A stretch of 27,438 nt of DNA, taken from contig CAZEBC010000030.1 in the NCBI GenBank assembly GCA_964510165.1, forward strand, positions 1 to 27,438, written 5' to 3'. The stretch comes from an uncultured bacterium (GTDB lineage Bacteria > Abyssobacteria > SURF-5). The notes beneath the pieces were generated by a model. It saw only the letters and a program-made list of their open reading frames with translations. It did not search any database and had not been told where the DNA came from. Made by a program: the position numbers and the translations under genes. Numbering within the stretch: position 1 is the first letter of the stretch; every line of letters begins with the position of its first letter. This document shows positions 15,472-22,741 of this stretch, one piece after another.

Positions 15472-16063
15472 GGCGCTTAAGGATACCTTCAAGAATGTGA
15501 CGCGCTTTTCTTAAAGCCTGCGCCCGATGGCTGATCTGGTTCTTGACCTCGGGTCCAAGCTTGGCGAAAGTCGCAGTGTATCCGTTTGGGATAAAGACCG
15601 GATCATAACCGAAGCCGGACTTACCGCTCGGGCGCGTGGCGATCCTGCCCTCACACCGCCCGGTGGCGATCCACACCTTCTTGCCGTCGGTAATCACGAT
15701 GACACAGACGAAGCGTGCGGTCCGCCTCTTGGGGCTGACGCCGCGCAAGTGTCGAAGCAACTTGCGTACGTTGTCGAGGTCAGCGGCGTTTTCCCCGGCA
15801 AATCGCGCCGACATGCAGCCGGGCTGGCCGTTGAGATGATCCACTTGGAGGCCTGAATCTTCAGCCAGAGTGAGCAGGCCCGTCTGCCGGTAATAGCCTC
15901 TCGCCTTGAGCCGGGCATTCGCAACAAAGGAGTTACCCGTTTCCTTGACGGAGACGATTTTCTCGAAATCCTTGAGACTGACGAGATCGAGCGGCAGGTT
16001 TTCGAGGGCGCGTGAAATCTCGCGAATCTTGCCGGAATTGCCAGTGGCAAGCAGGAGTTTCAT
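15452..16063 (-). CDS. rdgB: Non-canonical purine NTP pyrophosphatase (RdgB/HAM1)
   Basis: [33 protein letters not shown] and KNQISHR. The ATG at 16063 overlaps the rph stop (ATGA). Confidence 0.95.
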
Positions 16064-16797
16064 GAAACCCCGCTCCCCACGCCGAGCGCCCTGACCTGTG
16101 ATTCGACCAGTTTCAAAATGCCACATCGAGCAAGGTCCAGCATCTCATCAAGCAACTTCCGGTCGAATGGCGCCTTCTCCGCGGTTCCCTGCACTTCAAT
16201 GATGCCGCCATGCTGCCCCATGACCACGTTGAGGTCGGCCTCCGCCCGGGAGTCCTCCTCGTAACAGAGATCGAGCATCGGTACGCCCTCGACGAGGCCG
16301 ACGCTTGTCGCGGCGACGAACTCCCTGATTGGCATGGCTTCGATGACGTTCGCGCTGACGAGACGGCTCAGCGCCTCATGCAGGGCGACAAAAGAGCCGG
16401 TGATGGCGGCGGTGCGGGTGCCGCCATCGGCCTGTATCACGTCGCAGTCAATGATGACGGTCCGCGGGCCAAGCGCAGAGAGGTCTGTCACCGAGCGCAG
16501 CGCGCGCCCCACAAGTCGCTGTATCTCGTAAGTGCGTCCTGAGGGCCCCCGATTGGTTCGAGTGTGAGTCGAGCGCGGCAGCATCGAGTACTCGGCAGTG
16601 ATCCATCCTTTGCCCGTGTCGCGGAGGAAATCGGGTGTTTTCTCCTCGACGGAGGCGGTGCATATCACTCTTGTGTTTCCAATCGAGATGAGCGCCGAGC
16701 CTTCCGCGTATCGGGCACATCCTCCGCTGATATCGACAGGCCGTATCTCGTTCCATTTTCGGCCGTCGAGCCTTCGGATTTCCTCGGGGTTACTCAA
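16060..16797 (-). CDS. rph: Ribonuclease PH
   Basis: R.DGR...[49 protein letters not shown] and EVQGTAE. The likely start is the TTG at 16797 (GAGGA upstream) rather than 16851. Confidence 0.95.
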
Positions 16798-18232
16798 CGG
16801 GGACTTCCTCGGGCTGCGGAGTTTCGATGTCACCTTCGGACGGGTCCACATCTATCAGAGTCGGGGGTATCTCCGGCGACCCGGTCTCGGGCGTCTGCTC
16901 TTCCTTGGCAGCCTCCGGCTGGTTCTGTTTTGCGATGCTTATGTTCTGCTCGAGTGACTTGAATATGTCATACCCTTGCAGAAGCTCAACGGCCCTCTGA
17001 AGTTGGATGTCGACGACCTCCTCCTTCTTCTGGTCATCGGCCTGCTTCTTCGGTTCGCCATTGACTGCGCCCGGAATCTCCATGCTGGCAGTGAGCAAAT
17101 GCGCCTTTTGCTCCCTGGTCATCTTGACCTCGATATCGGGGGCGATGCCGACCTTGTTGATCGAATGCCCATTGGGCGTCAGATACTTCGCAGTGGTGAG
17201 GCGCAGGCCGGAACCATCCGAAAGCGGAATAATGCTCTGAACCGAAGCCTTGCCGAACGTCTTCTCGCCAAGGACAACGGCCCGATGCCAGTCCTTGAGC
17301 GCGCCAGCGACTATCTCGGACGCGCTTGCACTGCCGCCGTTAACCAGAACCACCATGGGGATGTTCGGGTCAACGTTGGCGTCGTGTTTCGCCTTGAACT
17401 TCATGTTCTGGTCCGCGTGTCTGGACTCGGTGTAGACGATGAGTTTTCCCTTGTCGAGGAATTCATCGGCCACATCCGCCGCGACGTTGAGGAGTCCGCC
17501 GGGATTATTGCGCAGGTCAACGATGAGCGAGCGCATTTTGGCCTTCTTGAGTTCATCGAGCGCCTTCCGAAGTTCGACCGTGGTCTGCTCGCTGAACTCA
17601 CGAATGCGCACGCGCCCAATATCGTCGGTCAGCATCTCCCATGTGACGCTTCGGATCTTGATGTCGTCCCGCGTGAGCGTGAATTCGAGTTCCTCGGGCA
17701 TTTGGCCGTTGTCCTCGTGCAACCTGAGCACTGTGATGGTGACCTTGCTGCCCTTCGGTCCCCGAAGCTTTTTCACCGCCTCTTCCAGGACAAACCCCTG
17801 TGTGCTCTCGCCATCGATCTTGATTATCTTGTCATTCGCTTGCACGCCCGCTTTATACGCCGGAGTGTCTTCGATGGGAGAGACCACAGTGAGGACCTTG
17901 TTTTCGTCAAGGCTGACGACAATGCCCAGCCCGCCGAAGTGGCCCTCGGTTTCGACCTTCAGTTCCTTATAGGTATCGGGCGGCATGAACTGGCTGTGCG
18001 CGTCAAGCCCGTTCAACATGCCTTTGAGAGAATTGTAAATGAGGTCCCTCGTGGTGACCTCGTCGACGTATTCGTTCTGCACGATGCCCAGCGCATCGGA
18101 AAACAACTCAAGGTCGGTATATGTTGATCCCGTTTGGGCGGTCACATAGCTTGACAGGCCATTGCCTATCAGGATACCCATAACAAGGACCGATAGCAGA
18201 AACAGAACAAACTCATTGCGGTGACGTTGCAT
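16790..18232 (-). CDS. ctpA: S41 family carboxy-terminal processing protease (CtpA type, PDZ domain)
   Basis: N-terminal signal/anchor, LDAHS, FGGLGI (PDZ), [14 protein letters not shown] (catalytic Ser) and FGKASVQ (catalytic Lys); acidic C-terminal tail. Confidence 0.93.
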
Positions 18233-20242
18233 TTACTGCCTCCTTTGAAGCCAGACAGCCGGATCAACGGGCTGTCCATTCTCCCTTATTTCAAAGTACA
18301 AGAAAGAGCCTTTGATGGAGCCGGTCTCACCCACAAGCGCTATGGGCTGGCCCGCGCTCACCGGGTCCCCCTTCTTGACCAGTATTTCGGAACAATGAGA
18401 ATAGATGCTGTTGTATCCCCCTCCATGGTCGAGAATCACAAGCTTTCCATATCCTCTGAACCAATCACAATATGCGACCACGCCCTGATGAACAGCCCGA
18501 ATTTCGGAGCCTGCCTCAGCCGAGATATCCACTCCCAGGTGCCTGGTATAGGTGTCAGAGCCGGGATTCCTGATGCGCCCGAAGGGAAGCGTCATCTCTC
18601 CCGTCGTCGGCCACGGCAGGAGCCCTTTCATTTCCCTGAAGGGAACGGAGGCGGCTGGCAGGGCCTGCGTCTCCGCGCGTTGAGAGTCAATCAACTCCTG
18701 CAGGTTCCGAGCCGATGTCTCGAGGTCCGCGATGGCAGCCAGGTAGATGCTTTTCTGCTCGTTCAGATTGTCGAGGAGGACCTGACGTTGCTTCTTTTTC
18801 TCAAGGTATTGCTGGGCTCGCAGGCTCGTGGTCTCCGTATACAGAGTATCCAATTCGCCGCGTTTTTGCAAGTTTTCCTGCTGTTTCAGCAGTTCGAGGC
18901 GCAGCGAGCGGGTGCGTTCGAACGCACGAGCCTCTTCGCGCGCCAACAGCGAAATCATCTTTCGGCGCCTCGTCAGTTCCGACTGTGGAACATCCCACAG
19001 GATCACCTCAACCACGCTGGGTTCGCGGCTATTGCAGAGCATCCTCAGCCATTGTTCGAGCTCCCGCCGTGACTGCGAGTATTCGGCCTCGCAACGAGCG
19101 AGGTCGAGCCTGGCTTTTTCTATCTCATCCTGATTCAACAACACCTTCGATTCACCGTCCTTTATCTGACGAGAGAGACCGTCGAGTTCTTTGTCAATCT
19201 GCTCGAGTTCGCGGATGACTGCCGTCTGCTTTCGCCCTATCCTTTCGGCGGCCTCACGGTTTTGCTGTAATTCGATCGTGAGCTGTTTCAGCTCATCTCG
19301 GTATTTGGCCAATTCCGATTCCAGACCACTCTCCGCGTACGCGGTAGATGTAAGGAGCGCAAGCGCAAAGATGGTAAAGGCTCGGCCTATTGCGCTGCGA
19401 ACCGAGAACCAGCTCGCCAATACGGCGAGTATGGGACCAACGGCAGCGACCGCGACGAAGACCGATACGGGCAACTCGAGCGCCCGCCCCATCCTCGAGG
19501 AGACCATGAGCGAGGCCAACACCAGAACAGCAATCCCGACGGCAGACCCCGCCACCCCCTGAGCAATGCCTTCCACGGTGAACACACGGCGGATGAAGCC
19601 GCCGCTGGCGCCCATCATTTGGAGGGTATGAGTGCCGGTTTTTCGCGTGGCAGACGCAAGCCGTGCGATGTTGACCGTTATTATTCCGAAAACCACTACC
19701 CAGAAGACGCTTGCGCCAACGGTGAATGCGGCGACATCCCGCCGAAACTGAAGGTATCGCTCCAGAAGGAGCTCTTCGAATTTGACTTCGTCCACTCCAT
19801 CGAGAGAATCGATCCTGGAGGCGAGTTCCTTGATGGCGCCAAGGCCGCGACTGCCTTCAGTCAATCGTACCACCACGGATGCAGGCAGCACTTCATCGAG
19901 CGGAACTCCGCCCAAGTCCAGCGAATCGCGCACCGCGGAAAATAGCTCCTCGTACGATTGCTGTCCGGTAATCAACCTGGCATCGGCTACTCCCGGGATA
20001 GCCCCGATGTCAACCGCGAGTTTTCGCGAATCCTCTTCACTCATCCCCTGTGTGAGGAATGCGACCAGCTCCACCCGACTTTCCCAGCGCCTGAGTGTCG
20101 CATTCAGATTGATGGCGCACAGCGCGAATGCGCCGAGGGCAAACACCGCAACCGCCACGCATCCAGTCATCGCCAGGCTGAGGGTGCGATCACGGCGGAA
20201 ATTCCGCAGTCCCTCCCTAAGCGCCAGACTATAATTTTCCAT
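18233..20242 (-). CDS. FtsX-EnvC fusion: FtsX permease (aa ~1-284), signal-peptide-like linker (aa ~287-303), coiled coil and degenerate M23/LytM domain (aa 304-669)
   Basis: FtsX part: LREGLRNFRR, TM1, a large extracytoplasmic loop (LPASVVV...GVDEV), MGAS..FIRRVF..EG and three further TMs. EnvC part: long coiled coil, KGLLPWP..G, FG, HLGVDI, GYGKLVILDHGGG, and LYFEIR..GQPVDP..WL. One uninterrupted ORF. Confidence 0.88.
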   Translation of the reverse strand: MENYSLALREGLRNFRRDRTLSLAMTGCVAVAVFALGAFALCAINLNATLRRWESRVELVAFLTQGMSEEDSRKLAVDIGAIPGVADARLITGQQSYEELFSAVRDSLDLGGVPLDEVLPASVVVRLTEGSRGLGAIKELASRIDSLDGVDEVKFEELLLERYLQFRRDVAAFTVGASVFWVVVFGIITVNIARLASATRKTGTHTLQMMGASGGFIRRVFTVEGIAQGVAGSAVGIAVLVLASLMVSSRMGRALELPVSVFVAVAAVGPILAVLASWFSVRSAIGRAFTIFALALLTSTAYAESGLESELAKYRDELKQLTIELQQNREAAERIGRKQTAVIRELEQIDKELDGLSRQIKDGESKVLLNQDEIEKARLDLARCEAEYSQSRRELEQWLRMLCNSREPSVVEVILWDVPQSELTRRRKMISLLAREEARAFERTRSLRLELLKQQENLQKRGELDTLYTETTSLRAQQYLEKKKQRQVLLDNLNEQKSIYLAAIADLETSARNLQELIDSQRAETQALPAASVPFREMKGLLPWPTTGEMTLPFGRIRNPGSDTYTRHLGVDISAEAGSEIRAVHQGVVAYCDWFRGYGKLVILDHGGGYNSIYSHCSEILVKKGDPVSAGQPIALVGETGSIKGSFLYFEIRENGQPVDPAVWLQRRQ

Positions 20243-20269: not shown

Positions 20270-20941
20270 TCAACGGGTTACAGATTTCGCGAGGCGTCCG
20301 AGCGAACTCTTGTCAAGCATAATGGCCCGCTTGCCGAATCGCTCGGCGAGTTCCACGCGATGGGTGGCTATCACGACGGTCGAGCCGCGCAGGTGCGCCC
20401 TCTTGAACATTTCCGCCGCGTTCTCGATACAATGCCAATCGAGGACTTCATAGGGTTCGTCGGCAAGCACAATCTTGGGGCGGCGCGCGAGTGCGCGACA
20501 GATCTTGACCATCTGCTTCTCATTCTCCGACACTTGCCGGGGAAGGAGAGCCGCCTTGCCCAACAACCCGACCTCTCTCAGATACTCATGCGCTTCTTTC
20601 TTTGCATTGACAAAGTGCGAACTCGCAAGCTCAAGAGATATCTGGATGTTCTCAGCCAGCGTATGATGAGGAAGCAGCGGGTCATCCTGGAAGATAACCC
20701 CAATCTCGCGCCGATACCTCGGGATGTCGCGCTTCTTGATCTCGGAAAGATCGCAGCCGTCCACGATGACGCTGCCGCCGGCCGGCGCCTCTTGCAGCGC
20801 CAGAATCCTCAGGAGCGAGGTCTTGCCCGAACCCGCCTGTCCACAGACAAACACGAAATCGCCTCGTTCAATGTGCAGATTGAGTCCATCTATAATCTGG
20901 TGGCTGCCTTGGCGCAGGCTGAGGTCAAGCGTTATTATCAC
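20270..20941 (-). CDS. ftsE: FtsE-like ABC ATPase with degenerate signature motif and D-loop
   Basis: Walker A GQAGSGKTS; FtsE-typical IP.YRREIGVIFQD..LL; Walker B VLADEP; ATH switch; directly upstream of ftsX. The GTG start at 20941 overlaps the transketolase stop (GTGA). Confidence 0.85.
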   Translation of the reverse strand: MIITLDLSLRQGSHQIIDGLNLHIERGDFVFVCGQAGSGKTSLLRILALQEAPAGGSVIVDGCDLSEIKKRDIPRYRREIGVIFQDDPLLPHHTLAENIQISLELASSHFVNAKKEAHEYLREVGLLGKAALLPRQVSENEKQMVKICRALARRPKIVLADEPYEVLDWHCIENAAEMFKRAHLRGSTVVIATHRVELAERFGKRAIMLDKSSLGRLAKSVTR

Positions 20942-21897
20942 TCGGCAGTGGCCTTTCTCGAAAGCGCCTTGCGAGCGGCTTCGGCTACGTGGCCTGCGGT
21001 CAATCCATAGTATGCGCACAGACCGTCAGGTTCGCCCGACTGACCGAACACATCATTCATGCCCACTCGGAACACGGGGGTGGGAACGGTCTCGCAGATC
21101 ACTTCAGCCACAGCGCTGCCGAGACCGCCAATGATATTGTGCTCCTCAACGGTGACGATCGCGCCGGTCTCCCCCGCCGCGGACATGAGCATCTCGCGGT
21201 CTATCGGCTTGATGGTGCTCATGTTGATTACCCGGGCGCTGATGGAATCTCGCAGCAATAATTCGGAGGCGGCTATCGCGACCTGCACCATCGCGCCCGT
21301 CGCTATTATCGAGACGTCGGAGCCCTCCATGAGAAGCGAGGCCCTGCCAAGCTCGAATTCATAGTCCTGATCATAAATGACTGGAACACCGGAGCGGCCC
21401 AGCCTGAGGTAGGCCGGACCAGGGGTTTCGGCCAAGACTTCGACCGCCTTCTCCGTTTCTACCGCGTCAGCCGGAACAACCACCTTCATGTTCGGGATCG
21501 CCCGCATCAGGGCGATGTCCTCGATTGCCTGATGGGACGAGCCGTCCGGACCGACTCCGATCCCGGCATGTGAGGCGGCGACCTTCACATTCAGATTTGC
21601 ATAGCAGATGGTGTTGCGTATCTGCTCCCACGCCCTCCCGGTAGCGAAGATGGCGAATGTGCTCGCAAACGCGATTTTCCCCGAGGCTGCCAGACCGGCG
21701 GCCGTGCCCATCATATCGGCCTCGGCTATGCCCATATCGAAAAAACGTTCCGGAAACTTGTGTTTGAACTTAATGGTGTTGGTTGACTTGGCCAGGTCGG
21801 CATCGAGCACGACAATATCGCGGTTCCGTTCCCCGAGCTTTACAAGCGCATTCCCGTAGGCCACGCGGGTTGCAATCTTCTCACCGGGCTTCGACAT
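20938..21897 (-). CDS. Transketolase, C-terminal subunit
   Basis: ATRVAYG, LDADLAKST, FFDMGIAE, GPDGSSHQ and TVEEH...GGLG. ATG at 21897 with a strong RBS (AGGAGAAAGGA). Confidence 0.95.
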   Translation of the reverse strand: MSKPGEKIATRVAYGNALVKLGERNRDIVVLDADLAKSTNTIKFKHKFPERFFDMGIAEADMMGTAAGLAASGKIAFASTFAIFATGRAWEQIRNTICYANLNVKVAASHAGIGVGPDGSSHQAIEDIALMRAIPNMKVVVPADAVETEKAVEVLAETPGPAYLRLGRSGVPVIYDQDYEFELGRASLLMEGSDVSIIATGAMVQVAIAASELLLRDSISARVINMSTIKPIDREMLMSAAGETGAIVTVEEHNIIGGLGSAVAEVICETVPTPVFRVGMNDVFGQSGEPDGLCAYYGLTAGHVAEAARKALSRKATAE

Positions 21898-21910
21898 TCG
21901 TCCTTTCTCC

Positions 21911-22741
21911 TCACTCGATCTCGATCTCGGCCAGAGCGCGGTCACGCTCCTCCTCAGTGGGCGCGACGCCGTGATAATCCACCTTGCCCTCCATGAAGGA
22001 AACGCCCTTGCCCTTCATGGTTCTCGCCACGATGACCGTCGGACGCCCTTTGACGACGCTCGCCCGGTCGAACGCGTCGAGAATCTCGCCCATATCGTGC
22101 CCGTCTATCTCCATGGCGTTCCATCCGAAACTGTGCCATTTCGCCGTTATTGACCCAAGCGATTTCACCTCGTCAATCCTGCCGTCGATTTGAAGCCCGT
22201 TGTTGTCCACTACGGCGCACAGGTTGTCGAGCCTATGATGCGCCGACGTCATGGCGGCCTCCCATATCTGGCCCTCCTGAAGCTCCCCATCACCTAGTAT
22301 GATATAGACGCGATGCATGCGTCCGTCGAGCCTGGCAGCCAAAGCCATGCCGTTTGCGATGGAAAGCCCCTGTCCGAGAGACCCGCTTGACATCTCCACG
22401 CCGGGGGTCTTGAGCATGTCGGGATGTCCCTGCAACGGACTGTTGAGCCTTCGCAGGGTATCGAGCCATTCGAGCGGGAAGTAGCCGCACCGCGCGAGAA
22501 CCGAGTACCAGGTGGGCGCACAGTGCCCCTTCGACATGAGGAAGCGGTCCCGGTCGGGCCAATCCGGACGCTTCGGGTCGTGCCGCATCACGTGGAAATA
22601 GAGCGCAACCACGATGTCGGCGCATGAAAGACTGCCACCAGGATGGCCGGAGCCGGCCTTCGCAAGCATTCGAATGATATCGCCTCGAACGAGCCTGGCG
22701 TGGCGCTCCAGGTCATTGATAACATTTTTGTCAAAAGGCAT
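21911..22741 (-). CDS. Transketolase, N-terminal subunit
   Basis: SGHPGGSLS, DRDRFLMSKGH, LQGHP, SGSLGQG and the TPP-binding GDGE...NN motif. Confidence 0.95.
   Translation of the reverse strand: MPFDKNVINDLERHARLVRGDIIRMLAKAGSGHPGGSLSCADIVVALYFHVMRHDPKRPDWPDRDRFLMSKGHCAPTWYSVLARCGYFPLEWLDTLRRLNSPLQGHPDMLKTPGVEMSSGSLGQGLSIANGMALAARLDGRMHRVYIILGDGELQEGQIWEAAMTSAHHRLDNLCAVVDNNGLQIDGRIDEVKSLGSITAKWHSFGWNAMEIDGHDMGEILDAFDRASVVKGRPTVIVARTMKGKGVSFMEGKVDYHGVAPTEEERDRALAEIEIE

Follow-up and report, generated by a model that had tools for sequence, protein, structure and literature searches.

FtsEX-EnvC is the best-understood ATP-binding cassette (ABC) transporter-like machine that signals across a membrane to control cell wall cleavage. 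The solved Escherichia coli complex contains two FtsE, two FtsX, and one EnvC molecule (PMC11139282), so the statement of one EnvC per FtsX dimer in the earlier, sequence-only reading of this locus (the original prediction) holds for E. coli. The 2:1 ratio of FtsX to EnvC and a free EnvC N terminus are both central to the current model. We analyzed a 27,438-nucleotide stretch of DNA, referred to below as the window, from an uncultured bacterium of the Abyssobacteria (lineage SURF-5; GenBank assembly GCA_964510165.1, contig CAZEBC010000030.1), in which FtsX and EnvC are encoded as one polypeptide. A lineage that makes the two proteins 1:1 is a natural experiment on both features of the model. 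The fused gene, ftsX::envC, lies at positions 18233 to 20242 on the minus strand, the strand being the one point that the original prediction left unstated.

The locus matches the canonical systems of E. coli (8hd0 and 6tpi), Pseudomonas aeruginosa (8i6o), and Vibrio cholerae (8tzk and 8tzl) in its parts and in their gene order. Shared with them are ftsE, a four-transmembrane (4-TM) FtsX with a periplasmic domain, and an EnvC made up of a signal peptide, a coiled coil of two helices, and a LytM domain without the HxH motif, and all of the testable parts fit an FtsEX-EnvC machine. Unlike in the canonical system, FtsX and EnvC form one polypeptide here and are made 1:1 as opposed to the 2:1 complex, and the putative signal peptide is internal and would stay on FtsX if the chain were cut. 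The LytM domain keeps H568, D572, and H616, whereas the aligned positions of E. coli EnvC are not H, D, and H. In Gram-positive and mycobacterial FtsEX systems, FtsX likewise holds a secreted coiled-coil cell wall protein. However, these partners (PcsB, CwlO, and RipC) are separate proteins and are themselves hydrolases, while the LytM domain of the fusion is degenerate and of the activator type.

Fusing adjacent genes of interacting partners is a common evolutionary event. Our search of the literature by title and the start of the abstract found no description of a natural FtsX-EnvC fusion, and the word "fusion" in PMC12505981 and PMC11139282 refers to tags and two-hybrid constructs. The machine itself was already known, and automatic annotation gives some members of the fused family both names, with "septal ring factor EnvC/cell division protein FtsX" among the Joint Genome Institute (JGI) automatic product names. 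What is new is that the two proteins are covalently linked, that the link is fixed in a phylum, and that the signal peptide is apparently internal. For never-cultured phyla, the fusion is also independent genomic evidence that FtsX and EnvC are partners.

A fused ftsX::envC gene throughout a phylum

The fused gene and its parts are the following.

18233 to 20242, minus strand: ftsX::envC fusion, 669 amino acids followed by a TAA stop; start ATG at 20242, preceded 5 nucleotides upstream by GAGAGG.
19400 to 20242, minus strand: FtsX part, residues 1 to 281, with TM1 at about 20 to 45, the periplasmic domain at 57 to 153, and TM2 to TM4 at about 172 to 281.
19334 to 19399, minus strand: junction, read as an internal signal peptide, R282 to A303, with a predicted cleavage site.
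18236 to 19333, minus strand: EnvC part, residues 304 to 669, with heptads at 304 to 321, helix 1 at 322 to 403, a conserved tip loop at 404 to 419, helix 2 with the presumed restraining arm at 420 to 521, and a degenerate LytM domain at about 546 to 664.

The list of open reading frames (ORFs) and the translation show a single 669-residue ORF without internal stops, in which 21 hydrophobic junction residues separate the FtsX and EnvC parts. The fusion is genuine and phylum-wide. The phylum set comprised 11 genomes from two families and nine genera, G000 included, and 10 of the 11 had one uninterrupted, stop-free match that spanned both halves. Identities to the window protein were 51 to 63% for members of its own family and 31% for the other family. 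In the eleventh genome, G002, the two halves were on two contigs, the first of which stopped at the contig end. Since relatives at 51 to 63% identity keep the same single frame, its persistence is far beyond chance. A protein search gave 424 matches at an E value of ≤0.001 among 8,000 scored candidates, and we aligned 32 further fused proteins from many independent assemblies (29 to 80% identical and 653 to 687 amino acids long) with the window protein in a 33-row alignment (A1). Source names among these proteins include Hydrogenedentota, Abyssobacteria, and Poribacteria. G000, which is 97% complete, had no second match to FtsX or to the coiled-coil region of EnvC, and its three other matches covered only an M23 domain.

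The other 20 genomes of the 31-genome search are more distant and gave no single match spanning both halves. FtsX and EnvC matches were adjacent and on the same strand in 5 of these 20 genomes (G013, G022, G025, G028, and G029). Such unfused neighbors in other phyla, as in G028 (locus L012), have the ftsX-envC order and strand of the fusion. In G028, ftsX ends in ...DFLKI and envC, which has a Met and a signal peptide of its own, begins at or over the ftsX stop, so that, unlike in the fusion, the two are separate ORFs in different frames.

A single-base error could fuse two genes that abut or overlap as they do in unfused genomes such as G028, and the original prediction had feared that an indel at the junction, an assembly artifact, or a private mutation had joined them. 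The stretch was present in five sequencing runs from three studies, none of them a listed RNA run. Contigs of runs X1, X2, and X4 spanned position 19387 with no gaps, and X4 comes from a study that was not flagged as a possible source. The sole junction variant across the run contigs was 19344 G>C, which by codon count gives the conservative change T300S. The contigs of run X3 are interrupted inside the junction, one ending at 19380 and the next resuming at 19394, probably because strain variation broke the contig graph, and we do not count this break as evidence. With the same continuous frame in 10 of the 11 phylum genomes and in the 32 independent proteins, and with gap-free contigs, an error or private mutation is ruled out for practical purposes, and these fears can be set aside.

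The domain content of the ORF is that of FtsX, a junction, a coiled coil, and an M23 domain, as originally claimed. Pfam matched FtsX_ECD at residues 57 to 153 (41.1 bits; cutoff, 23.5), the FtsX TM domain at residues 177 to 285 (24.9 bits, slightly under the cutoff of 25.5), and Peptidase_M23 at residues 567 to 661 (106.5 bits). Residues 8 to 283 covered positions 5 to 289 of the 292 in the NCBIfam profile FtsX_Gneg (TIGR00439), and given this near-full coverage, the FtsX part is complete and ends where the junction begins, again as predicted. As in FtsX, four TM helices are present, and a large periplasmic domain separates the first two. The full-length AlphaFold model, made from a 33-row alignment, had a mean predicted local distance difference test (pLDDT) score of 74 and a predicted template modeling (pTM) score of 0.41, and we drew no domain arrangement from it. 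Its helices in the FtsX part are at residues 19 to 54, 157 to 199, 214 to 251, and 259 to 275, with pLDDT values of 64 to 85 for the TM helices. Foldseek aligned the FtsX chains 8ymc_C, 8i6o_A, and 8hd0_C to the first half with target-normalized template modeling scores (TM-scores) of 0.61 to 0.68. The identity of solved FtsX and full-length EnvC chains to the fusion was low, at 17 to 22%.

The EnvC part follows the characteristic EnvC layout, in which a long antiparallel coiled coil of two helices leads into a LytM domain at the C terminus, with AlphaFold helices at residues 322 to 403 and 420 to 521 followed by a beta-rich domain at 549 to 659. E. coli EnvC (8hd0_E) residues 33 to 419 aligned to residues 311 to 667 of the fusion by phmmer. 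Fold matches to this part included 8tzl_E (E value, 1.1e-16), 6tpi_A (E value, 7.5e-14), and 4bh5_A (target-normalized TM-score, 0.83), and the closest solved chains by sequence were P. aeruginosa EnvC (8i6o_E; E value, 2.9e-33), V. cholerae 8tzk_E, and E. coli EnvC. The tip loop at residues 404 to 421 was among the most conserved segments in the 31 proteins of the main clade (top-residue frequency, 0.81).

We scored the LytM site by the canonical M23 residues, which we take to be H, D, H, and HxH. The HxH positions are F647 and Y649, the second His, a zinc ligand, is a Tyr in all 33 fused homologues, and the pattern x-L-Y-F-E-I-R is common to the fusion and E. coli EnvC, which has the same degeneracy. 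Judged on these residues, the LytM domain is degenerate and of the activator type, which would leave it without catalysis. The EnvC part would bind the FtsX periplasmic domains, which by homology may hold its tip, and would activate an AmiA/B-type amidase. A profile search of the genome gave four Amidase_3 matches, the best of which was a 518-amino-acid secreted protein on contig C9. Across residues 380 to 430, the regulatory insert included, the alignment of this protein to AmiA, AmiC, and AmiB of E. coli was unbroken, whereas its alignment to an amidase without the regulatory insert split at these residues. A separate observation concerns contig C261 of G000 (loci L016 and L017), where two Amidase_3 domains lie in one 756-amino-acid open frame; this tandem amidase is unrelated to the AmiA/C-like candidate on C9.

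The junction as a candidate internal signal peptide

The junction reads R282-SAIGR-AFTIFALALLTST-AYA/E304-SGLESELAK, where the slash marks the predicted cleavage site, and our translation agrees with the sequence and the AYA/E site given in the original prediction. A signal peptide consists of a basic n-region, an h-region of about 10 to 15 hydrophobic residues, and a c-region in which the -3 and -1 residues are small. The junction has this n-h-c layout of a Sec signal peptide, with the n-region at R282 to R287, the h-region AFTIFALALL, the c-region TSTAYA, and the predicted site between A303 and E304. It departs from a Sec signal peptide in position, as it begins at residue 282, after four TM helices, and not at the N terminus. 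The segment would thus act like a signal peptide without being a standard N-terminal one. The topology argument made earlier is sound, as an FtsX C terminus in the cytoplasm means that a further membrane-crossing segment is needed for EnvC to be exported.

A strict site, [AVSTGCIL]-x-A/[QEDKGAS], occurred 20 to 27 residues past the invariant R282 in all 33 fused sequences. When 650 windows of 9 residues were anchored to the alignment, a strict site was present in all 33 sequences only for windows that began at 297 to 300, compared to a median of 5 of the 33 per window and a background probability of 0.22. Around the site, Pro is at -6 in 17 of the 33 sequences, A, G, or V is at -3 in 30, the -2 residue is bulky, and Gln is at +1 in 19.

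In the 31 main-clade proteins, the junction was the least conserved segment, with a top-residue frequency of 0.45, an entropy of 2.16 bits, and none of its 21 columns at ≥90% conservation. The values for TM1 to TM4 were top-residue frequencies of 0.62 to 0.77, with 3 to 12 columns each at ≥90%. Hydrophobicity at positions 289 to 296 of the junction was retained (0.83 to 1.00). The uncharged span of the junction had a median of 20 residues (range, 15 to 28), and the signal peptides of the 76 stand-alone EnvC proteins with a hydrophobic N terminus, out of 81 examined, also had a median of 20 (interquartile range, 18 to 21.25). The medians for TM1, TM2, and TM3 were 31, 24, and 25 residues.

An exhaustive search of representatives aligned stand-alone EnvC proteins from residue 2 to 20 onward to query residues 282 to 300. 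Because the alignments start there, the signal peptides of stand-alone EnvC proteins are in register with the junction. More distant fused sequences (alignment A2) had, by eye, a basic region, a hydrophobic region, and a small-residue c-region at the junction in 14 of 14 cases. From this anatomy, the junction behaves like a retained EnvC export signal that has been made internal. Based on the G028 layout and the register of stand-alone EnvC, the simplest history is that ftsX lost its stop and envC its start.

Proposed release of EnvC and the alternatives

The original prediction left two outcomes open, a permanent tether or the release of EnvC by signal peptidase I. The evidence favors release and speaks against the tether. 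We consider it likely that signal peptidase I releases EnvC between A303 and E304, and the genome has two Peptidase_S26 genes (147.9 and 128.8 bits). The explanation as a whole, a phylum-wide in-frame fusion that internalized the EnvC signal peptide, followed by release through signal peptidase I, we regard as probable, with marginally less assurance than the release step.

In the proposed mechanism, the ftsX stop and the envC start would have been lost, leaving the EnvC Sec signal peptide internal, straight after FtsX TM4. FtsX would insert by its four helices, and after a turn of 2 to 6 residues with the invariant R282, the junction would form a hairpin with TM4 as it enters the membrane and would initiate Sec export of the 366-residue EnvC part. 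A signal peptidase I cut after A303 would give a 303-residue FtsX and a free periplasmic EnvC starting with ESGLESELAK. FtsX would keep residues 283 to 303 as a short hydrophobic C-terminal tail that ends in the periplasm. The N-terminal heptads of the freed EnvC would pair with the restraining arm, and two FtsX periplasmic domains would grip the coiled-coil tip, a step that presumes rebinding of EnvC. ATP turnover by FtsE would then free the degenerate LytM domain, and an amidase of the AmiA/B/C type would be activated.

A functional argument for cleavage comes from the EnvC N terminus. In E. coli, it forms an exposed three-heptad helix, which pairs in antiparallel orientation with the restraining arm in the active state, and deletion of the N-terminal heptads blocks activation and spares FtsX binding (PMC12505981). 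Because the E. coli N terminus must pair with the restraining arm, cleavage is favored over a tether. In the AlphaFold prediction, only 18 residues separate A303 from the 82-residue helix 1 (residues 322 to 403), and the tip loop is at the far end of that helix. With so short a link and so long a helix, a tethered N terminus could not reach the restraining arm if the tip is held by FtsX, and a free EnvC N terminus appears to be needed. The coiled coil begins some 7 to 9 residues past the predicted cleavage site, and the predicted mature end agrees with that of E. coli EnvC to within about 7 to 9 residues, as E. coli residue 33 aligns to residue 311 of the fusion. The mature E. coli EnvC construct starts at residue 35 (PMC11139282).

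We weighed against this the possibility that the junction is a stable, uncleaved fifth TM helix that tethers EnvC permanently. The uncut chain would be a five-helix FtsX with a covalently attached activator and the EnvC N terminus pinned at the membrane, and each FtsX dimer would carry two EnvC domains in a geometry unlike that of the E. coli complex. The fusion is kept throughout the phylum and recurs elsewhere, which could reflect a benefit of a physical link, and the uncharged span of the junction, up to 28 residues long, is compatible with a helix. Against the tether, the AxA-type site is present in all 33 sequences, with Pro at -6 in 17, inside the most variable segment of the protein, a combination that is hard to explain without selected cleavage. 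Because the site persists in a segment that otherwise drifts freely, we conclude that it is kept by selection. Unlike TM1 to TM4, the junction has no column at the 90% conservation level, and AlphaFold builds no helix there. The short distance from A303 to the helix bearing the conserved tip loop and the pairing of the E. coli heptads with the restraining arm (PMC12505981) also oppose a tether, as does the single EnvC per two FtsX in the solved complexes (PMC11139282). We judge a permanent tether, and with it the uncut five-helix chain, to be unlikely.

Several considerations weigh against release and against our assignment of the parts. The TM4 uncharged span has a median of 21 residues and overlaps that of the junction, so length alone cannot exclude a stable helix. 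The low junction pLDDT (33 to 36, with residues 277 to 318 all under 50 and without a helix) may merely mirror a variable region in the 33-row alignment. The loose -3/-1 form of the site is permissive, at 0.141 per position or about 0.6 per 6-position window, the occurrence of Ala at -1 in all 33 sequences partly follows from the way the site was picked, and the 33 fused sequences are kin, so that counts from them are nonindependent. The reach argument joins an E. coli mechanism to predicted secondary structure and not to coordinates, and access of signal peptidase I to a site that follows a hairpin turn of only 2 to 6 residues is an assumption. Finally, the NCBIfam scores fall short of their cutoffs: FtsX_Gneg scored 123.1 bits (equivalog cutoff, 255), EnvC NF008644 scored 101.4 bits (cutoff, 270) with its match confined to the LytM domain at residues 540 to 667, and FtsE TIGR02673 scored 188 bits (equivalog cutoff, 264.85). 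We read these scores as divergence and, for FtsX, as divergence of the phylum and not as a different fold.

Another alternative is that the gene yields two products through internal initiation or frameshifting, so that EnvC, or an FtsX ending in ..SVRSA, would also be made separately and the fusion would be a minor product. The out-of-frame TAG pointed out in the original prediction is present at 19387 to 19389 by codon count, scattered in-frame GTG and TTG codons occur near the junction in relatives, and a distant fused cluster, P0202, keeps a Met immediately before its junction signal peptide. However, in the stretch reaching from 12 codons ahead of R282 to 24 codons past it, the window gene has a single in-frame ATG, GTG, or TTG codon, the TTG at L275, which has 2 of 6 matches to the Shine-Dalgarno sequence AGGAGG, consistent with the earlier statement that no in-frame ATG or GTG with a ribosome-binding site lies near the junction. 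An internal EnvC start was sought in 10 loci, and no candidate was conserved in position or exceeded 4 of 6 AGGAGG matches. The data need no slippery site, for which no search was made, and nothing points to the use of a frameshift. We consider two separate products to be very improbable.

Synthesis at 1:1 set against a 2:1 complex results in surplus EnvC. A milder form of the uncut reading judged unlikely above is half-of-sites processing, in which one EnvC per dimer would be freed and captured and the other would remain tethered or be removed by Ctp, the protease encoded downstream. That Ctp trims or removes surplus EnvC is speculation, and the tightly coupled ctp gene hints at such a route for removal of the activator.

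The nearest mechanistic precedent known to us is FbcH of Bradyrhizobium japonicum, the cytochrome b-c1 precursor, a membrane polyprotein that is reportedly cleaved at its internal signal peptide to give two subunits of one complex. Like the fusion, FbcH is a polytopic protein with a cytoplasmic C terminus followed by a periplasmic partner with its own signal peptide. It belongs to another protein family with another function, and its processing is reportedly documented by experiment, whereas that of the fusion is only inferred. A search for literature on internal signal peptide cleavage in bacteria returned no relevant paper. If the fusion is cut, it would be a rare bacterial membrane polyprotein that is cleaved at an internal signal peptide, and FtsX would be left with a signal peptide tail. 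An uncut chain would be incompatible with the accepted activation geometry, and FtsEX would be wired differently, without the N terminus being paired with the restraining arm.

Fused forms in other lineages and neighboring genes

A search of representatives identified further fused clusters with 26 to 33% identity that matched end to end (P0122, P0125, P0126, P0127, P0129, P0130, P0185, and P0259), two that matched in two stretches (P0131 and P0202), and one partial match (P0176). Source names were Armatimonadota for P0202 and Candidatus Eisenbacteria for P0259. We built a FastTree phylogeny of the EnvC half from 236 rows (43 fused and 193 stand-alone), which gave long-branch warnings and from which length and coverage filters left out P0039, P0129, P0185, P0259, and P0176. 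The main fused clade was one well-supported group with P0038/P0122 as its sister, and the other fused clusters were scattered among stand-alone EnvC proteins. P0202 adjoined P0210, which is complete and has a Met and a signal peptide of its own. The tree shows 10 label changes when counted raw, an inflated number, as the "alone" rows P0036, P0037, and P0188, located inside or next to fused clades, are fragments of fused genes. The tree suggests that the fusion likely had more than one origin. P0202 is also the only fused cluster that keeps all five canonical M23 residues, and it may be an FtsX fused to an active endopeptidase and not to an activator.

Two genes flank the fusion directly.

20270 to 20941, minus strand: ftsE (ABC ATPase), listed as ORF 20270 to 21019; ABC_tran, 101 bits; best NCBIfam match, TIGR02673 FtsE.
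16790 to 18232, minus strand: ctp, PDZ domain-containing S41 C-terminal processing protease; Peptidase_S41, 198 bits; TIGR00225 prc, 356 bits, above the cutoff of 218.6.

As is typical of FtsX, the fusion is encoded directly after FtsE. The ftsE stop lies 27 nucleotides upstream of the fusion ATG on the same strand, and ftsE directly precedes the fusion in all 10 loci from relatives (L002 to L011). Position 13 of the TIGR02673 profile falls at residue 38 of the listed ftsE ORF, and the ftsE start is probably the GTG at 20941, which would overlap the transketolase stop as GTGA. Downstream, the ctp ATG abuts the fusion TAA (TAAATG), and an AAGGAGG lies inside the last codons of the fusion, an arrangement indicating that ctp is translationally coupled to it. 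The ctp gene follows the fusion in all nine relatives with enough downstream sequence (L002 to L009 and L011) and does not follow envC in the unfused outgroup G028.

Upstream of ftsE, transketolase is split into two ORFs for its N- and C-terminal halves, at 20938 to 21945 and 21911 to 22741 on the minus strand, which overlap by 35 nucleotides. Since the C-terminal half ends in a stop that overlaps the likely ftsE GTG, ftsE-ftsX::envC-ctp may be cotranscribed with transketolase. On the other side of the cluster, a ribonuclease PH ORF at 16060 to 16851 on the minus strand (TIGR01966, 334 bits, above the cutoff) shares 62 nucleotides (16790 to 16851) with the 3' end of ctp. Because the profile match begins at residue 27, the true start of ribonuclease PH is probably further downstream.

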